In this document: positions 16,509 through 41,520 of the stretch, in pieces
Position numbering within the stretch: position 1 is the first letter of the stretch
How the letters are laid out: each line of letters starts with the position of its first letter
Position numbers and translations under genes: made by a program
Assembly (NCBI RefSeq): GCF_016026235.1
Contig: NZ_CP065613.1
Reading direction: 5' to 3' (one strand)
Source: Escherichia coli
GTDB taxonomy: Bacteria > Pseudomonadota > Gammaproteobacteria > Enterobacterales > Enterobacteriaceae
Length of the DNA stretch: 64,000 nucleotides
Notes under the pieces: model-generated
The model's input: the letters and a program-made list of their open reading frames with translations, nothing else
Databases searched by the model: none
What the model was told of the DNA's origin: nothing

Positions 16509-18398
16509 TTACGCATCACCACCGAAACGACGACGACCGGTAGAGTCATCACGACGCGGAGCGCGGCCTTCACGACGTTCGCCGCTAAAACGACGACCAT
16601 CACCACGGCCACCTTCACGGCGTTCACCGCTGAAGTTACGACCGCCTTCACGACGTTCGCCACCGAAACCACGACCACCGCCACGACGCTCACCGCCAGT
16701 ATGCGGCTGTGCATCGCCCAGTAACTGCATGTTCATCGGCTTGTTGAGAATGCGAGTGCGCGTAAAGTGTTGCAGCACTTCACCCGGCATACCTTTCGGC
16801 AGTTCGATGGTGGAGTGAGAAGCAAACAGCTTGATGTTACCAATGTAACGGCTGCTGATGTCGCCTTCGTTAGCAATCGCACCAACGATATGACGAACTT
16901 CAACACCATCATCGCGGCCCACTTCAATGCGGTACAGCTGCATATCGCCAACATCACGACGTTCACGACGCGGACGATCTTCACGGTCACCACGCGGGCC
17001 ACGGTCGTTACGATCGCGCGGACCACGGTCATCACGGTCACGGAATTCACGTTTCGGACGCATCGGCGCATCTGGCGGTACGATCAGAGTACGTTCACCC
17101 TGTGCCATTTTCAGCAGTGCCGCAGCCAGAGTTTCGAGATCCAGCTCTTCACCTTCAGCAGTCGGCTGAATTTTGCTCAGCAGTGCGCGGTATTGATCCA
17201 GATCGCTGCTTTCCAGCTGCTGCTGTACTTTAGCGGCGAATTTTTCCAGACGGCGTTTGCCTAGCAGTTCTGCGTTCGGCAGTTCTACTTCCGGAATAGT
17301 CAGCTTCATAGTACGTTCAATGTTGCGCAGCAGACGACGCTCGCGGTTCTCAACGAACAGCAGCGCGCGGCCAGCACGACCCGCACGACCGGTACGACCG
17401 ATACGGTGAACGTAAGACTCAGAATCCATCGGGATATCGTAGTTAACTACCAGGCTGATACGCTCAACGTCCAGGCCACGGGCTGCAACGTCGGTCGCAA
17501 TCAGGATGTCCAGACGACCATCTTTCAGGCGTTCCAGTGTCTGTTCACGCAGCGCCTGGTTCATGTCACCGTTCAGCGCGGCGCTGTTGTAGCCGTTACG
17601 CTCAAGAGCTTCAGCCACTTCCAGAGTCGCGTTTTTGGTACGAACGAAGATAATCGCCGCATCAAAATCTTCCGCTTCCAGGAAACGTACCAGTGCTTCG
17701 TTTTTGCGCATACCCCAGACAGTCCAGTAGCTCTGGCTGATGTCAGGACGGGTAGTCACGCTGGACTGAATGCGCACTTCCTGCGGCTCTTTCATAAAGC
17801 GGCGGGTAATGCGACGAATCGCTTCCGGCATGGTTGCAGAGAACAGAGCGGTCTGATGACCTTCCGGGATCTGCGCCATAATGGTTTCAACGTCTTCGAT
17901 GAAGCCCATGCGCAGCATTTCGTCAGCTTCATCCAGAACCAGACCGCTCAGTTTAGAGAGGTCCAGAGTGCCACGTTTCAGGTGGTCCAGCAGACGGCCC
18001 GGAGTACCGACAACGATCTGCGGCCCCTGACGCAGGGCGCGTAATTGCACGTCATAACGCTGGCCGCCGTACAGAGCAACCACATTTACGCCGCGCATGT
18101 GTTTAGAGAAATCCGTCATTGCTTCAGCAACCTGTACCGCCAGTTCGCGGGTCGGTGCCAGCACCAGAATCTGTGGTGCTTTCAGCTCAGGATCAAGATT
18201 CTGCAACAGAGGTAAAGAGAATGCTGCAGTTTTTCCGCTCCCCGTCTGGGCCATACCCAGAACGTCGCGGCCATTCAGCAGATGTGGAATACACTCTGCC
18301 TGAATTGGAGATGGTTTTTCGTAACCCAGATCGTTAAGGGCTTCAAGGATAGGAGCCTTCAGGCCCAGATCTGCAAAAGTGGTTTCGAATTCAGCCAT
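16509..18398 (-). CDS. deaD: Cold-shock DEAD-box ATP-dependent RNA helicase
   Basis: 629 aa from ATG (cat at 18396-18398); AQTGSGKT and DEAD motifs; RGG/ERREGG-repeat C-terminal tail. Confidence 0.9.
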
Positions 18399-18577: not shown

Positions 18578-19462
18578 CTATTGCTGGTCCGATTCTGCCA
18601 GGTCATCTTGGTCCTGGCCCAGGAGCGATAATTCCAACAATGCGTATCGGTGCTCAACAAAGTTATGAACGTTGTTGGCAACCGCCAGTTTGAACAGTGC
18701 CGTGGCGCTGTCCAAATCCCCCAGACTTAGGTAGTACTTACCTAAATAGAAGTTGGTTTCACTGAGATGCTCAGCGAGCGAGGTGTTATCCGTTGCGTCC
18801 GCCTTGAGCCTTTCCATTAACGTTTGTTCGCTAATGTTGCCCAGGTAGAACTCGACAATGTTCCATCCCCACTGTTCCTTATCCGATTTTTCGAAGTGCT
18901 GTTTCAACACTTCTTTAGCCTGCTTCTCATCGAGCTTCTGCTCGGCGAGATAAAGCCACAGACTACGGAAAGGATCATTGGGATCGTCTTGATAAAACGC
19001 CAGCAGATCATCTTGCGCTAACTTGTCACGACCGCCGTAATATAATGCGATCCCGCGATTCAAGTGCGCGTAGTTGTAAGTTGGATCAAGCTCAAGTACA
19101 GAATCAAACGCTTCATAGGCAGCATCAAAATTGCCTGCCTGCGTTAAATATATGCCTAAGTAATTGAATACTTCAGGCATATCCGGTCGGATTGCCAGCG
19201 CTTGCGAAAAATCGTTACGCGCTAATGCCCTCAGACCGAGACTATCATACAACACTCCGCGCTCATATAAAAGCTGTGCGCGTTCGTCATCGGTTAAAGC
19301 CCGACTGGCAAGGATTTGTTCCATACGTGCCAGAATCACTTCCTGCTGTAAAGTCGGTTGCAATGGTACCGCGAGGACTTCACTTTTACGCCAGGAAGTA
19401 TTACTGCATCCTGCAAGCGTAAGTGCTGTCGCAACGAAACACCAGCGCAAAAAAGGCTTCAT
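18578..19462 (-). CDS. nlpI: TPR-repeat outer-membrane lipoprotein
   Basis: 294 aa; lipobox LTLAGC followed by TPR repeats. Confidence 0.9.
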
Positions 19463-19570
19463 TTCCCACTCCCGAAGACCACGGTTGAATGAACGTCCTG
19501 TTCCCGGTTGCTAACAAGGCGTCCTGCCCGGTTAAAAGCCCCCCGCCGCAGCGGAGGGCAAATGGCAACC

Positions 19571-21706
19571 TTACTCGCCCTGTTCAGCAGCCGGAGCTTC
19601 CGGTGCTGCAGCAGGTTGAGACTGCTCAGTCGCTTCTTTAATGCTCAGACGGATACGGCCCTGGCGATCAACTTCCAGAACTTTCACCGGTACTTCCTGA
19701 CCCATCTGCAGGTAATCGGTCACTTTCTCAACGCGTTTGTCAGCGATTTGAGAGATGTGGACCAGACCTTCTTTACCGCCGCCGATGGCAACAAATGCGC
19801 CAAAGTCAACGATACGGGTCACTTTACCAGTGTAGACGCGGCCCACTTCGATTTCTGCAGTGATCTCTTCGATACGACGAATAGCATGTTTCGCTTTCTC
19901 GCCGTCGGTCGCTGCGATCTTCACAGTACCGTCATCTTCGATTTCGATGGTAGTGCCAGTTTCTTCGGTCAGGGCACGGATAACAGAGCCGCCTTTACCG
20001 ATAACGTCTTTGATCTTATCCGGGTTGATCTTGATGGTATGGATACGCGGTGCGAACTCAGAGATATCGCCACGCGGCGCGTTGATCGCCTGTTCCATTA
20101 CGCCCAGGATATGCAGACGCGCACCTTTAGCCTGGTTCAGCGCAACCTGCATGATCTCTTTGGTGATACCTTCAATTTTGATATCCATCTGCAATGCAGA
20201 GATACCCTCGCGGGAACCCGCAACTTTGAAGTCCATATCGCCCAGGTGATCTTCGTCGCCCAAAATGTCAGACAGTACAACGTAGTTGTCGCCTTCTTTC
20301 ACCAGACCCATTGCGATACCCGCAACGGCAGCTTTGATCGGCACACCTGCGTCCATCAGCGCCAGAGACGCGCCGCACACGGAAGCCATAGAAGAGGAAC
20401 CGTTGGATTCAGTGATTTCAGACACAACACGTACGGTGTACGGGAATTTGTCCATATCCGGCATGACTGCCAGCACGCCGCGCTTCGCCAGACGACCGTG
20501 ACCAATTTCACGACGCTTCGGAGAACCGACCATGCCGGTTTCGCCTACGGAGTACGGAGGGAAGTTGTAGTGGAACAGGAAGGTATCGGTACGTTCGCCC
20601 ATCAGTTCATCAAGAACCTGCGCGTCACGAGCAGTACCCAGCGTTGCGGTAACCAGCGCCTGCGTTTCACCACGGGTGAACAGCGCAGAACCGTGAGTAC
20701 GCGGCAGCACGCCAGTACGCACATCCAGACCACGGATCATATCTTTTTCACGACCGTCGATACGCGGTTCGCCTGCCAGTACGCGGCTACGAACAACGTT
20801 TTTCTCGATAGCGTGCAGAATTTCACCCAGTTCGTTTTCGTCCAGGGTTTCGTCTTCAGCAAGCAGCGTCGCGATGGTTTCAGATTTGATGACATCAACC
20901 TGCGCATAACGCTCTTGTTTGTCGGTGATGCGGTAAGCATCGCTCAGGCGAGCTTCAGCCAGTGCAGCAACGCGCGCGTTCAGCGCTTCGTTTACCGGCT
21001 CCGGCTGCCAGTCCCAACGCGGTTTACCGGCTTCTTTCACCAGTTCATTGATGTTCTGAATAACAACCTGCTGTTGTTCATGACCGAACACTACTGCGCC
21101 CAGCATCTGGTCTTCGCTCAGCAGTTCAGCTTCAGATTCAACCATCAGTACAGCGGCTTCAGTACCCGCAACAACCAGATCCAGTTTGCTCTCTTTCAGC
21201 TCGTCCTGAGTCGGGTTCAGTACGTACTGGTCATTGATGTAACCTACGCGGGCAGCACCAATCGGGCCATTGAACGGAATACCAGACAGAGACAGTGCTG
21301 CGGAAGCACCAATCATCGCGACGATATCCGGGTTAACCTGCGGGTTAACAGAAACCACGGTGGCGATAACCTGAACTTCGTTGACGAAGCCTTCCGGGAA
21401 CAGCGGGCGAATCGGGCGGTCAATCAGACGCGCGATCAGGGTTTCGCCTTCGCTTGGACGACCTTCACGACGGAAGAAGCTACCCGGGATACGACCAGCA
21501 GCGTAGGTACGCTCCTGATAGTTAACGGTCAGTGGGAAGAAGTCCTGACCTGGTTTGGCTTTTTTCTGGCCAACAACGGTAACAAATACCGCGGTGTCAT
21601 CCATGCTAACCATAACAGCGGCAGTAGCCTGACGAGCCATCATGCCGGTTTCCAGAGTCACGGTGTGTTGGCCGTACTGGAATTTACGAACGATCGGATT
21701 AAGCAA
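19571..21706 (-). CDS. pnp: Polynucleotide phosphorylase
   Basis: 711 aa from a UUG start (caa at 21704-21706); two RNase PH domains plus KH and S1 domains. Confidence 0.9.
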
Positions 21707-21906
21707 TGTAATATCCTTTCTCTTTCTTAGACAGTACCTTACGGCACTGGTGTTAATACCCGATCTTCTGCGCATCCTCGCGACTAATGACAACCCTAAC
21801 CCAGCTCTATGTGGGTAAAGCCTCTCATTAGCCGCGCGAACCTCTGCAACGGAAGATCATTCATAGCAACAATACATTAGTTTCCAGTGAATTGCTGCCG
21901 TCAGCT

Positions 21907-21936
21907 TGAAAAAAGGGGCCACTCAGGCCCCCTTTT
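21907..21936 (-). terminator. rpsO rho-independent terminator
   Basis: Hairpin aaggggcc/ggcccctt with a T-run on the minus strand, just downstream of rpsO. Confidence 0.6.
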
Positions 21937-21952
21937 CTGAAACTCGCAAGAA

Positions 21953-22318
<366 letters not shown>

Positions 22319-23793: not shown

Positions 23794-23867
23794 GGCCTGA
23801 TAAGACGCGCCAGCGTCACATCAGGCAATCCATGCCGGATGCGGCGTAAACGCCTTATCCCGCATGG
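23794..23867. repeat. REP/BIME element
   Basis: ggcctgataagacgcgccagcgtcacatcaggc and gccggatgcggcgtaaacgccttatcccgcatg between infB and rbfA. Confidence 0.5.
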
Positions 23868-23880
23868 AACCCTAAAAACC

Positions 23881-26553
23881 TTAAGCGATGGTACGTTGGA
23901 TCTCGATGATTTCGAATACTTCGATCACATCGCCAGTGCGGACGTCGTTGTAGTTCTTAACGCCGATACCACATTCCATACCGTTACGGACTTCGTTAAC
24001 GTCATCTTTGAAGCGGCGCAGGGACTCCAGCTCGCCTTCATAGATAACCACGTTGTCACGCAGAACGCGGATCGGGTTGTGACGTTTAACCACACCTTCG
24101 GTAACCATACAGCCTGCGATGGCACCAAATTTCGGCGATTTGAACACGTCACGAACTTCCGCCAGACCGATAATCTGCTGTTTCAGTTCCGGAGACAGCA
24201 TACCGCTCATCGCCGCTTTCACTTCGTCGATCAGGTTATAGATGACGGAGTAGTAACGCAGATCCAGGCTTTCCGCTTCAATCACTTTACGTGCAGAGGC
24301 ATCAGCACGTACGTTGAAGCCAACCAGGATGGCGTTGGACGCCGCAGCCAGGGTGGCGTCGGTTTCGGTGATACCACCTACGCCAGAACCGATGATCTTC
24401 ACTTTAACTTCGTCAGTAGACAGTTTCAGCAAGGAGTCGGAGATCGCTTCCACAGAACCCTGTACGTCTGCCTTCAGGACGATATTCACTTCGTGAACTT
24501 CGCCTTCGGTCATGTTGGCGAACATGTTCTCGAGTTTAGATTTCTGCTGACGCGCCAGTTTAACTTCGCGGAATTTACCCTGACGATAGAGTGCAACTTC
24601 ACGCGCTTTCTTCTCGTCACGTACAACGGTAACTTCATCACCCGCAGCCGGAACACCGGATAAGCCGAGGATTTCCACCGGAATGGACGGACCCGCTTCC
24701 AGCACTTCCTGACCCAGTTCGTTACGCATCGCACGAACACGACCGTATTCGAAGCCACACAGAACGATATCGCCCTTGTGCAGAGTACCTTCACGTACCA
24801 GAACGGTAGCAACCGGACCACGACCTTTATCGAGGAAGGATTCGATAACCGCACCGCTCGCCATACCTTTACGTACCGCTTTCAGCTCCAGAACTTCCGC
24901 CTGCAGCAGGATAGCGTCCAGCAGTTCATCGATACCGGTACCCGCTTTCGCAGATACGTGTACGAACTGGCTTTCACCGCCCCACTCTTCCGGCAGGATG
25001 CCGTACTGGGAGAGTTCGTTCTTAACGCGATCCGGATCGGCTTCTGGTTTATCGATCTTGTTCACTGCAACCACCACCGGTACCTGCGCCGCTTTCGCGT
25101 GCTGGATTGCTTCGATGGTCTGCGGCATTACGCCGTCGTCGGCAGCAACAACCAGGACTACGATGTCAGTTGCCTGCGCACCACGTGCACGCATTGAAGT
25201 AAACGCAGCGTGCCCCGGGGTGTCCAGGAAGGTGATCATGCCGTTTTCAGTTTCAACGTGGTATGCACCAATGTGCTGGGTAATGCCGCCCGCTTCGCCA
25301 GAGGCCACTTTCGTTGAGCGAATGTAGTCCAGCAGAGAGGTTTTACCGTGGTCAACGTGACCCATGATGGTCACAACCGGCGCGCGCGGTTCAGCCGCAG
25401 CACCCGTGTCACGGTCGCTCATTACCGCCTCTTCCAGCTCGTTTTCACGACGCAGGATAACTTTGTGGCCCATCTCTTCAGCAACCAGCTGTGCGGTTTC
25501 CTGATCGATAACCTGGTTGATGGTTGCCATTGCGCCCAGTTTCATCATCGCTTTGATGACCTGAGAGCCTTTAACCGCCATCTTGTTCGCCAGTTCGCCA
25601 ACGGTGATGGTTTCGCCGATCACAACGTCACGGTTAACGGCCTGAGCTGGCTTCTGGAAGCCTTGCTGCAGGGAAGAACCTTTACGTTTTCCGCCTTTAC
25701 CGCCACGTACTGCTGCGCGTGCTTCTTCACGATCAGCTTTTGATTCAGCGTGTTTGTTGCCTTTCTTCGGACGCGCTGCTTTCGCGTTACGACCACGGCC
25801 ACGGCCGCCTTCGACTTCACGATCGCTTTCGTCTTCTGCCTGGCGAGCATGTTGAGAAGTAGTGACGTGATAATCGCTGGAATCTTCAGTCGGTTCCGCG
25901 TTATCAGTCCATTTGTTTTCTTCCGCCATACGACGTGCTTCTTCAGCAACGCGACGTGCTTCTTCTTCGAGTTTACGACGCGCTTCTTCTTCGGCTTTAC
26001 GCTTGAGCTCTGCAGCTTCCTGCTCACGGCGGGCTTTTTCAGCTTGGGCGTTTTTAGTCATATCGTCTTGTTGATTGCTCACTTTGTCTTTTTCCGCAGC
26101 TTCACGTTTCGCTTGTTCAGCAGCTTCACGCTTAGCTTGTTCTGCGGCCTCACGTTCAGCTTTTTGTTGCGCCTCGCGTTTAGCCGATTCTTCTGCCTCA
26201 CGACGGGCTTGCTCTTCCGCTTCACGCTGCGCTTGCTCTTCCGCTGCAAGGCGTTCAGCCTCTTGCGGATCGCGTTTCACAAAGGTGCGTTTCTTGCGGA
26301 CTTCGATTTGTACCGATTTGCTTTTTCCACCGGTACCAGGAATGTTAAGGGTGCTGCGTGTTTTACGTTGCAGCGTCAATTTGTCCGGGCCTGAATTTTT
26401 CTGATTCAGGTGGTCAATCAAAGTCTGTTTCTCTTGTGCAGACACAGAGTCGTCAGCAGACTTCCGGATACCTGCATCAGCAAATTGCTGTACCAGGCGT
26501 TCCACGGAGGTCTGTCGCTCTGCGGCCAGCGTTTTAATCGTTACATCTGTCAT
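23881..26553 (-). CDS. infB: Translation initiation factor IF-2
   Basis: 890 aa; G-domain motifs ([17 protein letters not shown]); repetitive EAxxQAKREA N-terminal region. Confidence 0.95.
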
Positions 26554-26577
26554 GCTGTTCCTTCCTGCTACAGTTTA

Positions 26578-28065
<1,488 letters not shown>

Positions 28066-29125: not shown

Positions 29126-29160
29126 AGAGCGGAAATCCAGGCTCATCATCAGTTAATTAA

Positions 29161-30519
<1,359 letters not shown>

Positions 30520-34659: not shown

Positions 34660-36594
34660 TTACTTGTCGCCTAACTGCTCTGACATGGTGTTACCCGGGT
34701 TCGGCGTACGCGGTTCATCAACCGGACGAGGAGCCTTTGGACTACCATTGTCGCCAGAATTGTTAGAAGCGCCTGGTTCTTCCCAGCCCGCTGGCGGACG
34801 TACATCGCGACGTGCCATCAGGTCATCAATCTGCGGTGCGTCGATAGTCTCATATTTCATGAGAGCATCTTTCATCGCATGCAGAATATCCATATTGTCG
34901 GTCAGAAGCTGACGCGCACGATTATAGTTACGCTCAATCAGTGCTTTCACTTCCTGGTCGATGATACGTGCAGTTTCATCGGACATATGTTTCGCTTTCG
35001 CTACGCTACGGCCGAGGAACACTTCACCTTCTTCTTCCGCGTACAGCAGTGGACCCAATTTCTCAGAGAAGCCCCACTGAGTCACCATGTTACGTGCCAG
35101 GTTGGTCGCAACTTTAATATCGTTGGACGCACCGGTAGAAACATGTTCCGGCCCGTAGATGATCTCTTCTGCCAGACGACCACCGTACAGCGTAGAAATC
35201 TGGCTTTCCAGTTTCTGACGGCTGGCGCTGATTGCGTCGCCCTCAGGCAAGAAGAAAGTCACACCCAGCGCACGACCGCGTGGGATAATCGTCACTTTGT
35301 GCACCGGATCGTGCTCCGGCACCAGGCGACCGATAATCGCATGACCCGCTTCGTGGTAAGCCGTCGATTCTTTCTGCGCTTCCGTCATCACCATGGAGCG
35401 ACGTTCCGCACCCATCATGATTTTGTCTTTCGCTTTCTCGAACTCAACCATCGACACAACGCGTTTGTTGCCACGAGCAGCGAACAGTGCCGCTTCGTTC
35501 ACCAGGTTCGCCAGGTCAGCACCGGAGAAACCAGGAGTACCACGGGCAATGATTGCCGCGTCGATATCGGGTGCCAATGGTACGCGACGCATGTGAACTT
35601 TCAGGATCTGCTCACGACCGCGAACATCTGGCAAGCCGACCACAACCTGACGGTCGAAACGGCCAGGACGCAGCAGGGCTGGGTCGAGAACGTCCGGACG
35701 GTTAGTCGCGGCGATAACGATGATACCTTCGTTACCTTCGAAGCCATCCATCTCAACCAGCATCTGGTTCAGAGTCTGTTCACGTTCATCGTGACCACCG
35801 CCCAGACCTGCGCCACGCTGGCGGCCTACGGCGTCGATTTCATCGATAAAGATGATGCACGGTGCCGCTTTCTTCGCCTGTTCGAACATGTCACGAACAC
35901 GGGATGCACCCACACCGACGAACATTTCTACGAAGTCAGAACCGGAGATAGTAAAGAACGGAACTTTCGCTTCGCCTGCAATCGCTTTCGCCAGCAGCGT
36001 TTTACCGGTACCTGGAGGACCGACCATCAGGACGCCTTTCGGGATCTTACCGCCGAGTTTCTGGAAGCGGCTCGGCTCGCGCAGATACTCAACCAGTTCA
36101 GCAACTTCTTCTTTTGCTTCGTCGCAGCCCGCAACGTCAGCAAAGGTCGTTTTGATCTGATCTTCCGTCAGCATGCGCGCTTTGCTCTTACCAAACGACA
36201 TGGCACCTTTGCCACCGCCGCCCTGCATTTGACGCATGAAGAAGATCCAGACACCAATCAGCAACAGCATCGGGAACCAGGAGATGAAGATAGAAGCCAG
36301 CAGGCTTGGTTCTTCAGGCGGTTCACCGACAACCTTGACGTTCTTGGTCAACAGGTTATCCAGTAATTTCGGATCCTGAACCGGAATGTAAGTGGTATAA
36401 CGGTTACTATCTTTCTTGGTAACGTTGATTTCACGTCCGTTGATACGCGCTTCACGAACCTGGTCGTTATTGACCTCTTGTAGGAAGGTAGAGTAATCCA
36501 CCTTACGGCCATTAGACTCGCTGGGCCCAAAGCTCTGGAATACTGACATCAGCACAACGGCAATGACCAGCCAGAGTATTAGGTTTTTCGCCAT
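34660..36594 (-). CDS. ftsH: ATP-dependent zinc metalloprotease FtsH
   Basis: 644 aa; Walker A (GPPGTGKT), AAA second region of homology and HEAGH zinc motif. Confidence 0.95.
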
Positions 36595-40082: not shown

Positions 40083-40100
40083 TAATGCCAGTCAGTTAAG
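40083..40100. repeat. IS4 terminal inverted repeat, left
   Basis: taatgccagtcagttaag, 16 of 18 matches to the reverse complement of 41490-41507. Confidence 0.85.
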
Positions 40101-41423
40101 CAACTGACTGGCTCTTTTTCGGGGCTGTGGGGTATTTCCAGGGCCTCTCCTTTACCACTCTCGGGAAGGCCCTTCCCCTTCTCGTCGGTAATTTCACAAG
40201 TTGTCCCATACTTGCAAGATCGCGCATCAGCTCCGGTATACGTCCCGGTGAAGCGCCCTGCAATGTCATCAGCATTCTCATCACCATTCCGCATGATTCT
40301 GAGAAACTCAGTTGATTCGGCCAGTAACCTTTCAGATGTTCCGCCATTTTAATCATCTGATATCTCACCAGATTATAAGCCAGTAAGACACCCCACAGCT
40401 CTTGCTCCACAAGCTCCGGCTTTTTACTTCTCAGCGTCAGCCTGCTCAGTTGCATCGTCTGTTTTATCTCCCTGTATCCCAGTTCGATTTCCCAGCGATG
40501 ACTGTACAGATCCGCCATTTCTCCTCCGGGGAAGCGCATGGCGTCCGTCATCGACGTCAGCAGATGGCAGACTTTTCCTTTGCGCGTCACGGTCAGCAGG
40601 CGGGCTGTCACTTCATTTCCCAGTCCCGGCCACTTTTTTCGTGCCTGCGGGCTGGTTTTCAGCTTCACCAGATGATCGCCTTTACCCAGTTTTCTGAGCT
40701 CTTCATATTGCGCTCCCTTTCTGAGAGGTATCATCCAGTGGCGGTGTTCTCCCGCCAGGCTCCAGGCATTTAACAGTCCCAGTGAGTAATAACCTTTATC
40801 CATTAACGTCAGAGTGTTATCGCCGGTTTGTTCTATAAGTTGCTCAGCAAGCTCATTTTCGCTGTTCTTCATCGTGCCGAAGGCTGCAGCCGTCAGCAGA
40901 TGGCTGGTCAGTTCCATCTGGCAGACCATTTTGACCTGCGGGTAGAGCGCCGGGTTCCCGGCATGTGTCTGGCGGGGAAGGCTGCATCGTTCTCTGGTGT
41001 ATCCGGTGTGCGCCAGAACACACCATCGATGGCCAGCAGGGTCAGGCCGCACCAGTGCGGATGCGGCGTGGCGTTATGCCAGAGCTGCGCTGTTTTCGTG
41101 AACACGCGGCGGACAGCCTCACTTCCCAGGCGCTGGCGGGCCTGAATAACGGCACTGGGGGCAACGAAGGGGCGATTGCCCGGCAGCATGATGTCCAGGC
41201 GATTCACAATCTGGTGAAGAGGTTCTTTACGCTCAAGCGCCATGCCAACAATACACCAGACCATCATTTCGAGGGGAAGACGGCGCTTGCGTAGCGTTAC
41301 AGTACCTGATTCGGCAAGGCAACGAGAGATGAGTTCGGGGTCGAGGTAATCCCCCAGAGAAGTCAGTGGGTTACGCAGAGAATCGTAACGGGATACCAGA
41401 TCAAGAGCCTGTCCAATGTGCAT
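40096..41423 (-). pseudogene. insG: IS4 transposase interrupted by a -1 frameshift
   Basis: Two overlapping minus-strand ORFs (40908-41441 and 40096-41052) together encode 150 + 292 = 442 aa of one continuous transposase. The frame changes at a G4 run, 40974-40977. Confidence 0.8.
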
Positions 41424-41489
41424 AAAAAAATCCGGAAACAAGTGAGCGTTTCCGGATTCTTACACAGCCACTGGATCGGTCAACTGATC

Positions 41490-41507
41490 CTTAACTGATC
41501 GGCATTA
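41490..41507. repeat. IS4 terminal inverted repeat, right
   Basis: cttaactgatcggcatta. Confidence 0.85.
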
Positions 41508-41520
41508 CGGCACATGGCCG
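41508..41520. repeat. IS4 target-site duplication, right copy
   Basis: cggcacatggccg. Confidence 0.85.

Follow-up and report, generated by a model that had tools for sequence, protein, structure and literature searches.

A 740-codon stop-free frame opposite pnp of Escherichia coli is judged to be a non-coding shadow of codon bias

Shadow ORFs, the open frames that lie in frame -1 opposite bacterial genes, were treated by Merino et al. 1994 and Silke 1997, whose work is summarised by Mir et al. 2012 (PMC3454372). Antisense genes with experimental support have also been reported in E. coli O157:H7 and P. aeruginosa, namely pop/ompA (PMC7103648), ano (PMC5960689), asa (PMC6294744), laoB (PMC5810103) and olg1/olg2 (PMC8850804), and one of them, ano, lies in frame -3 and not in the bias-prone frame -1 (PMC5960689). 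The groups of Scherer and Neuhaus have put forward overlapping genes of this kind (PMC7103648, PMC9927249, PMC7457138), and some long antisense ORFs have been argued to exceed the expectation from codon usage (Ardern et al., PMC7457138; Mir et al., PMC3454372). The frame opposite pnp that we analyzed here resembles the antisense overlapping genes of E. coli O157:H7 and P. aeruginosa in that a long ORF lies antisense within an annotated gene. With the shadow ORFs that highly expressed genes have in frame -1, it shares both its codon alignment and a strongly codon-biased host gene.

Position and alignment of the antisense frames

The stretch of DNA analyzed (64,000 nucleotides, hereafter the window) is a part of the E. 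coli chromosome extending from yraJ to arcB. By annotation transfer, it carries on its minus strand the pnp coding sequence for polynucleotide phosphorylase (PNPase; 19571..21706, 711 codons, TTG start). Opposite this gene, an ORF finder returned a plus-strand ORF of 740 aa beginning with TTG at 19508..21730, which reproduces the stop-free frame of 740 codons given in the preliminary description; measured from stop to stop, the frame occupies 19493..21730 on the plus strand, or 745 codons. The ORF contains all of the annotated pnp together with 63 nt past the pnp stop and 24 nt past the pnp start. It had been said to have the same length as the pnp ORF itself, which is a coincidence: 740 codons is the length of the upstream-extended pnp ORF (19571..21793) reported by the ORF finder, while the annotated gene has 711. 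The pnp region is 100% identical in strain FDAARGOS_943, and all but one of the complete E. coli genomes contain it (5425 of 5426).

The plus-strand ORF and pnp have their codon boundaries in common, as positions 19508 and 19571 are both 2 mod 3, and every antisense codon reads as the reverse complement of a single codon of pnp. Because of these shared boundaries, a stop in the aligned antisense frame can come only from a sense TTA, CTA or TCA (hereafter stop-type codons). There are no stops in the aligned frame opposite pnp; the remaining two antisense frames contain 22 and 39.

Across the whole window, unannotated ORFs of 150 aa or more opposite annotated genes number 16, and 15 of them are in the aligned frame. 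Among these 15 are ORFs of 495 codons opposite ftsH (34879..36366, plus strand), 489 codons opposite nusA and the start of infB (26410..27879, plus strand), 357 codons opposite argG (29149..30222, minus strand), and 274 and 214 codons opposite infB (23839..24663 and 25750..26394, both plus strand), lengths that agree exactly with those first quoted. These frames had been described as spanning entire essential genes, and this holds for pnp as far as the span is concerned. The others cover their hosts in part: 1488 of the 1935 nt of ftsH (77%), a gene with 6 stop-type codons; 1302 of the 1488 nt of nusA (87.5%) plus 144 nt of infB; 1047 of the 1344 nt of argG (78%); and, for the last two ORFs, parts of infB. 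Nor is the word essential appropriate throughout, since pnp and argG are non-essential in E. coli. Viable, cold-sensitive pnp mutants are mentioned in PMC5029454.

Codon usage of pnp and the number of stops expected

None of the 711 codons of pnp is TTA, CTA or TCA. To see this number in its context, we counted twelve further rare codons that have no effect on the antisense frame (GGA, GGG, ATA, CTC, CCC, AGA, AGG, CGA, CGG, AGT, TCG and ACA; hereafter control rare codons), and they were missing from pnp as well, making fifteen rare codons that the gene lacks. The control rare codons would be expected 43.6 times at the codon usage of the window and 14.0 times at that of ribosomal-protein and elongation-factor genes. 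Leucine is encoded by CTG at 46 of 51 sites and serine by TCT, TCC or AGC at all 31 sites, and pnp is poorer than its neighbours in both amino acids (Leu, 7.3% vs 10.6%; Ser, 4.4% vs 5.5%). Stop-type codons make up 2.09% of codons on the window average. In a pool of ~140 genes consisting of the window genes and two K-12 regions, pnp was the cleanest at Gly, Ile, Pro, Arg and Thr sites, where 0 of 231 codons were control rare codons. The depletion of rare codons in pnp is thus general and not specific to the antisense frame.

The probability of finding no stop depends on the reference used. For random codons, (61/64)^745 gives P ~3e-16 by our own arithmetic. When the PNPase sequence was kept fixed and its synonymous codons followed the usage of the other window genes, 10.95 stop-type codons were expected, with P(0)=7.7e-6. 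The usage of ribosomal-protein and elongation-factor genes, taken from 32 K-12 genes of those operons, lowered the expectation to 3.3 to 3.9 stop-type codons, with P(0)=0.018 to 0.034.

Under the ribosomal-protein table alone the absence of stop-type codons is mildly unlikely (P ~0.02 to 0.03), an observation that runs against a reading by codon bias. We did not keep this table as the sole null. By this table pnp should have 14 control rare codons, and it has 0; the table is therefore insufficiently biased to serve as a reference for pnp.

A bias-matched null was built from genes having under 1 to 2% control rare codons. In these genes, stop-type codons account for 2.2 to 2.6% of Leu + Ser codons, so that 1.8 to 2.1 are expected among the 82 Leu + Ser codons of pnp, giving P(0)=0.11 to 0.16. 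Across genes, the density of stop-type codons rises with the density of unrelated rare codons (Spearman 0.73). In K-12, rpoB has one stop-type codon in 1342 and an open antisense run of 991 codons, the open runs opposite rpoC and fusA reach 844 and 528 codons, and tufA and tufB have no stop-type codons. The pnp frame is therefore neither unexpected, at a P(0) of 0.11 to 0.16, nor the longest of its kind, as the runs opposite rpoB and rpoC are longer. It is far longer than random sequence gives and not longer than the codon bias of pnp predicts, and the view that its length is unusual does not survive once this bias is accounted for.

Codon bias in E. coli reflects selection for efficient translation, and from this established knowledge of E. 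coli codon usage, the bias of pnp is likely to be due to the same selection. The stop-free frame almost certainly arises passively from the translational codon bias of pnp. The gene is strongly expressed and keeps almost entirely to preferred codons; with its low Leu and Ser content, TTA, CTA and TCA happen to be missing, and the opposite frame stays open over the whole gene and for a few codons past each end. No reading of the frame is required for this, and the frame breaks whenever a synonymous change makes a TTA, CTA or TCA.

Alternative explanations and the evidence bearing on them

The plus-strand frame could instead be a real overlapping gene whose antisense transcript is translated into a functional protein of ~720 to 740 aa, or into a shorter one begun at an internal start codon, a proposal made for pop/ompA and further overlapping genes of EHEC. 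Such a gene would fit with the great length of the frame, with its being intact here and in ~70% of E. coli genomes, and with published claims of translated antisense ORFs in E. coli (PMC9927249, PMC7103648). We nevertheless consider it highly improbable, for reasons that come from variation, conservation, constraint and expression signals.

We compared 13 E. coli pnp alleles, which diverge by up to 2%. Codon 242 of pnp (20981..20983) is CTG in the present strain, read as CAG on the antisense strand, and is CTA in K-12 W3110 and strain E148. This synonymous CTG>CTA change creates an antisense TAG, by which the frame is split into about 496 and 248 codons. Among about 5420 complete E. coli genomes, two reciprocal 45-nt queries gave exact matches to the CTA allele in 1614 and to the CTG allele in 3776; the frame is thus interrupted at this codon in ~30% of them, K-12 included. 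The K-12 allele largely refutes a full-length antisense product. Among 107 synonymous single-base variants in the 13 alleles, only 1 created a stop-type codon where 6.25 were expected, a scarcity that would be in line with a frame kept open for its protein; variants creating control rare codons were also fewer than expected (6 observed vs 13.3). These expectations were derived from transition/transversion opportunity, in a small sample and with phylogeny ignored, and the difference between the two deficits was not significant (our own binomial P ~0.29). Both deficits are as expected for selection against rare codons in pnp.

The conservation of the frame was analyzed with 80 pnp loci and their 10-kb flanks, one genome per species, which gave 77 usable orthologues. 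The frame was fully open in only four of the 77 species, Citrobacter werkmanii, Pseudescherichia vulneris, Escherichia sp. ESNIH1 and E. albertii; other close Enterobacteriaceae, among them Enterobacter, Kluyvera, Siccibacter and Pluralibacter, had 1 to 2 stops in it, and distant genera had dozens. In Vibrio and Photobacterium, where CTA is a common Leu codon, it occurs 14 to 30 times in pnp (10 in one Vibrio strain). The stop-type share of Leu + Ser codons in pnp was closely correlated with that in its neighbours infB, nusA, deaD, truB and rpsO from the same genome (Pearson 0.975, Spearman 0.96, n=64). The openness of the frame is not an ancient conserved property, because it follows the present-day codon preferences of each genome, as the CTA-rich pnp of Vibrio illustrates. 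In 11 close Enterobacteriaceae, pnp had 1.15 stop-type codons per 1000 compared with 3.3 to 5.2 in the neighbours, and the ratio of stop-type to control rare codons was 0.231 in pnp, 0.261 in infB, 0.205 in nusA and 0.303 in deaD. Stop-type codons are thus depleted in proportion to control rare codons, and no excess depletion of the former was found in pnp of these 11 genomes.

The hypothetical antisense product did not show signs of constraint of its own. From one E. coli strain to another, 1 to 3 of the 711 residues of PNPase change and 17 to 43 of the antisense translation; against Citrobacter, the numbers are 24 and 176. The rate of evolution of the antisense 'protein' exceeds that of PNPase 10- to 40-fold, and dN/dS is 2.3 to 8.5 for the antisense frame compared with 0.014 to 0.055 for pnp. 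Such values for the antisense frame are the mirror image of purifying selection on PNPase and not the mark of a second constrained protein. The preliminary description had proposed looking in pnp for synonymous-site constraint consistent with dual coding, and the outcome was negative: against close genera, dS of pnp (0.43 to 0.62) was about the same as that of infB (0.41 to 0.69) and deaD (0.45 to 0.72), so that no extra synonymous constraint in pnp was found by this comparison. Conservation of the ORF and purifying selection are two defining features of a functional overlapping gene, and the pnp antisense frame displays neither.

Signals for expression were also sought. A crude consensus-match scan of the plus strand over 19200..22300 found no sigma-70-like promoter, and there is no Shine-Dalgarno sequence at the TTG at 19508. 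The first in-frame ATG (19562), as read from the plus strand, is preceded at a distance of 4 nt by GGAGG (19553..19564), which could be taken in favour of an antisense gene. This pair falls within the complement of a G+C-rich hairpin that follows the pnp stop and is predicted from the sequence as the pnp terminator; the pair is probably a coincidence, and base pairing in the stem would mask it. The only documented plus-strand transcript at the pnp locus is the sRNA SraG (21765..21936, plus strand; Rfam RF00082, 164 bits), whose true 5' end lies 42 nt upstream of the old annotation (Fontaine et al., PMC5029454). SraG begins no earlier than the extreme 3' end of the shadow ORF and extends away from there, so that the ORF cannot be expressed from it. 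A Pfam scan detected no domain in the antisense protein, and a collection of 15 billion predicted proteins contains neither the exact 740-aa nor the exact 722-aa antisense sequence. Two E. coli antisense-gene surveys, searched in text and supplements for pnp by name and by locus tags, did not mention it, which weighs little as the identifiers used in the surveys may differ. We infer that the frame is not expressed. No recognisable promoter appears to transcribe it, and selection does not maintain it.

Where a strain has the frame intact, pervasive transcription of pnp in antisense might permit low-level translation of a part of it, for example from the ATG at 19562 with the GGAGG before it, and the frame would then be a very young, strain-variable proto-gene below the reach of the selection tests. 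We give this very little credence.

Just as doubtful is the idea that the frame is kept open by selection unrelated to a protein, either as a remnant of coding on the complementary strand (RNY), a speculation of Merino et al., or because antisense stops are avoided for some reason at the RNA level. Long frame -1 ORFs are general and non-random (PMC3454372), and RNY codons are indeed more frequent in pnp (42%) than on the window average (35%), both of which would suit this idea. However, over 49 genes of the window, the density of stop-type codons was predicted poorly by RNY content (R2 0.09) and better by the avoidance of rare codons (R2 0.27). CTG, the dominant Leu codon of pnp, is YNR and not RNY, and yraK has 7 antisense stops in spite of 44% RNY codons. 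RNY periodicity was therefore rejected as the main cause. The dependence of openness on the present codon preferences of each genome and the polymorphic antisense stop, at 30% frequency, also argue against selection on the frame, as does a stop-type depletion that did not exceed the control-codon depletion in the pnp region and the ~140 genes where the two were compared. The preliminary description had attributed the pattern to highly expressed genes with strong RNY-type codon bias. The codon bias of highly expressed genes does deplete antisense stops, and it is RNY periodicity as such that is not the mechanism.

Least credible of all is pure chance, a long open frame arising by luck and unrelated to codon bias, for which one can say nothing beyond that some ORF has to be the longest in any window, and which is already refuted by the confinement of the effect to the aligned frame and by its correlation with rare-codon avoidance, stop-type density being lowest in the most biased genes, besides the minute P(0) values for window usage and random codons.

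With codon bias as the preferred explanation, we judge the ORF at 19508..21730 to be a non-coding shadow ORF that is presumably not expressed. Its reading as a non-coding shadow, suggested from the start, is supported by the codon counts, the bias-matched null, the non-conservation of the frame and the lack of constraint.

Comparison with known systems

Had the frame been coding, no longer antisense overlapping gene would be known from bacteria; the evidence speaks against this. The supported antisense genes rest on RNA-seq, Ribo-seq, promoters and terminators, phenotypes and, for some, purifying selection, whereas the pnp frame fails the tests of conservation and selection and had no promoter in our scan. 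Like the pnp frame, SraG (RF00082; PMC5029454) lies on the plus strand opposite pnp, and it is a real antisense product; unlike the frame, it is a non-coding RNA of ~170 to 215 nt that is complementary to the pnp 5' UTR only.

A caution follows for other loci: codon bias by itself is enough to produce very long antisense open frames across from highly expressed genes of bacteria, and such frames should not count as evidence for overlapping genes. Three controls used here can be reused. The frame should be identified, as stops in the aligned frame come from just three sense codons; the depletion of those codons should be set against the depletion of codons that are just as rare but have no bearing on the antisense frame; and natural synonymous 'knock-outs', such as the common CTG>CTA allele carried by K-12, should be looked for.

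The likeness to the frame -1 shadow ORFs is close. As with them, the openness of the pnp frame is fully explained by the missing TTA, CTA and TCA, and the same pattern is seen opposite rpoB, rpoC, fusA, tufA, nusA, ftsH, argG and infB. There is no substantive difference from other frame -1 shadow ORFs; the pnp frame is simply long, with 740 codons and 100% of its host gene covered in this strain, although in K-12 it comes to only about 491 and 248 codons. The frame -1 shadow phenomenon is already known, and the frame opposite pnp is a textbook case of it.

Codon optimisation of pnp and its lineage dependence

Of the 231 codons in pnp (19571..21706, − strand) that specify Gly, Ile, Pro, Arg or Thr, none is rare. 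When we made the comparison with the two K-12 loci, L083 and L096, rare codons for these amino acids numbered 2 to 7 in fusA, tufA, tufB, infB and rpoB, versus 0 in pnp. Across 11 related species, pnp was still more codon-biased than all its neighbours. The gene so strongly optimised encodes an exoribonuclease.

Codon preference was also considered in the pnp loci of Vibrio and Photobacterium (L044, L055 to L064, L073 and L076). CTA is the Leu codon that E. coli uses least. In these genera it occurs 14 to 30 times in pnp (10 times in one Vibrio strain) and 5 to 9 times in rpsO, a gene of 89 codons, and TTA is nearly absent. Clearly, the preferred Leu codons of highly expressed genes differ between these lineages and E. 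coli.

We also noted a 183-aa ORF opposite infB (24776..25327, + strand), shifted by 1, which is the only long antisense ORF of the window lying outside the codon-aligned frame.

Insertion sequences

Between dacB and cgtA (about 40084..41508) the window carries an inserted IS4-family element of 1.43 kb, with a target duplication of ~13 bp on both sides. A frameshift divides its transposase between two ORFs, one of 177 aa carrying Nterm_IS4 (40908..41441) and the other of 318 aa carrying DDE_Tnp_1 (40096..41052). FDAARGOS_943, otherwise the closest genome, is without this insertion; it has ISEc60 between folP and ftsH, which is absent from the window.

Regulatory RNAs near pnp and a predicted deaD leader in nlpI

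We found two regulatory RNAs that are already known. One is SraG (21765..21936, + strand; 164 bits), an sRNA complementary to the 5' UTR of pnp; the other, at 22166..22280 on the − strand (118 bits), is the ribosomal S15 leader, which precedes rpsO. A terminator-like hairpin predicted at 21915..21931 fits the bidirectional rpsO/sraG terminator described previously (PMC5029454).

The synonymous divergence of nlpI (18578..19462, − strand) is unusually low: dS against close Enterobacteriaceae is 0.20 to 0.50, below that of pnp, and falls to 0.048 in the E. albertii comparison, despite the weak codon bias of the gene. In codons 2 to 60, dS is only slightly above that of the codons further downstream. 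This synonymous constraint may be explained by a dual role of nlpI as a regulatory 5' UTR of deaD. Our promoter scan predicted a sigma-70-like site at 19271..19244 (− strand), from which a transcript would begin ~839 nt before deaD, whose start is at 18398. This predicted length agrees with the 838-nt 5' UTR published for deaD/csdA (bioRxiv 10.1101/2021.03.08.434349), so that most of nlpI doubles as the deaD leader.
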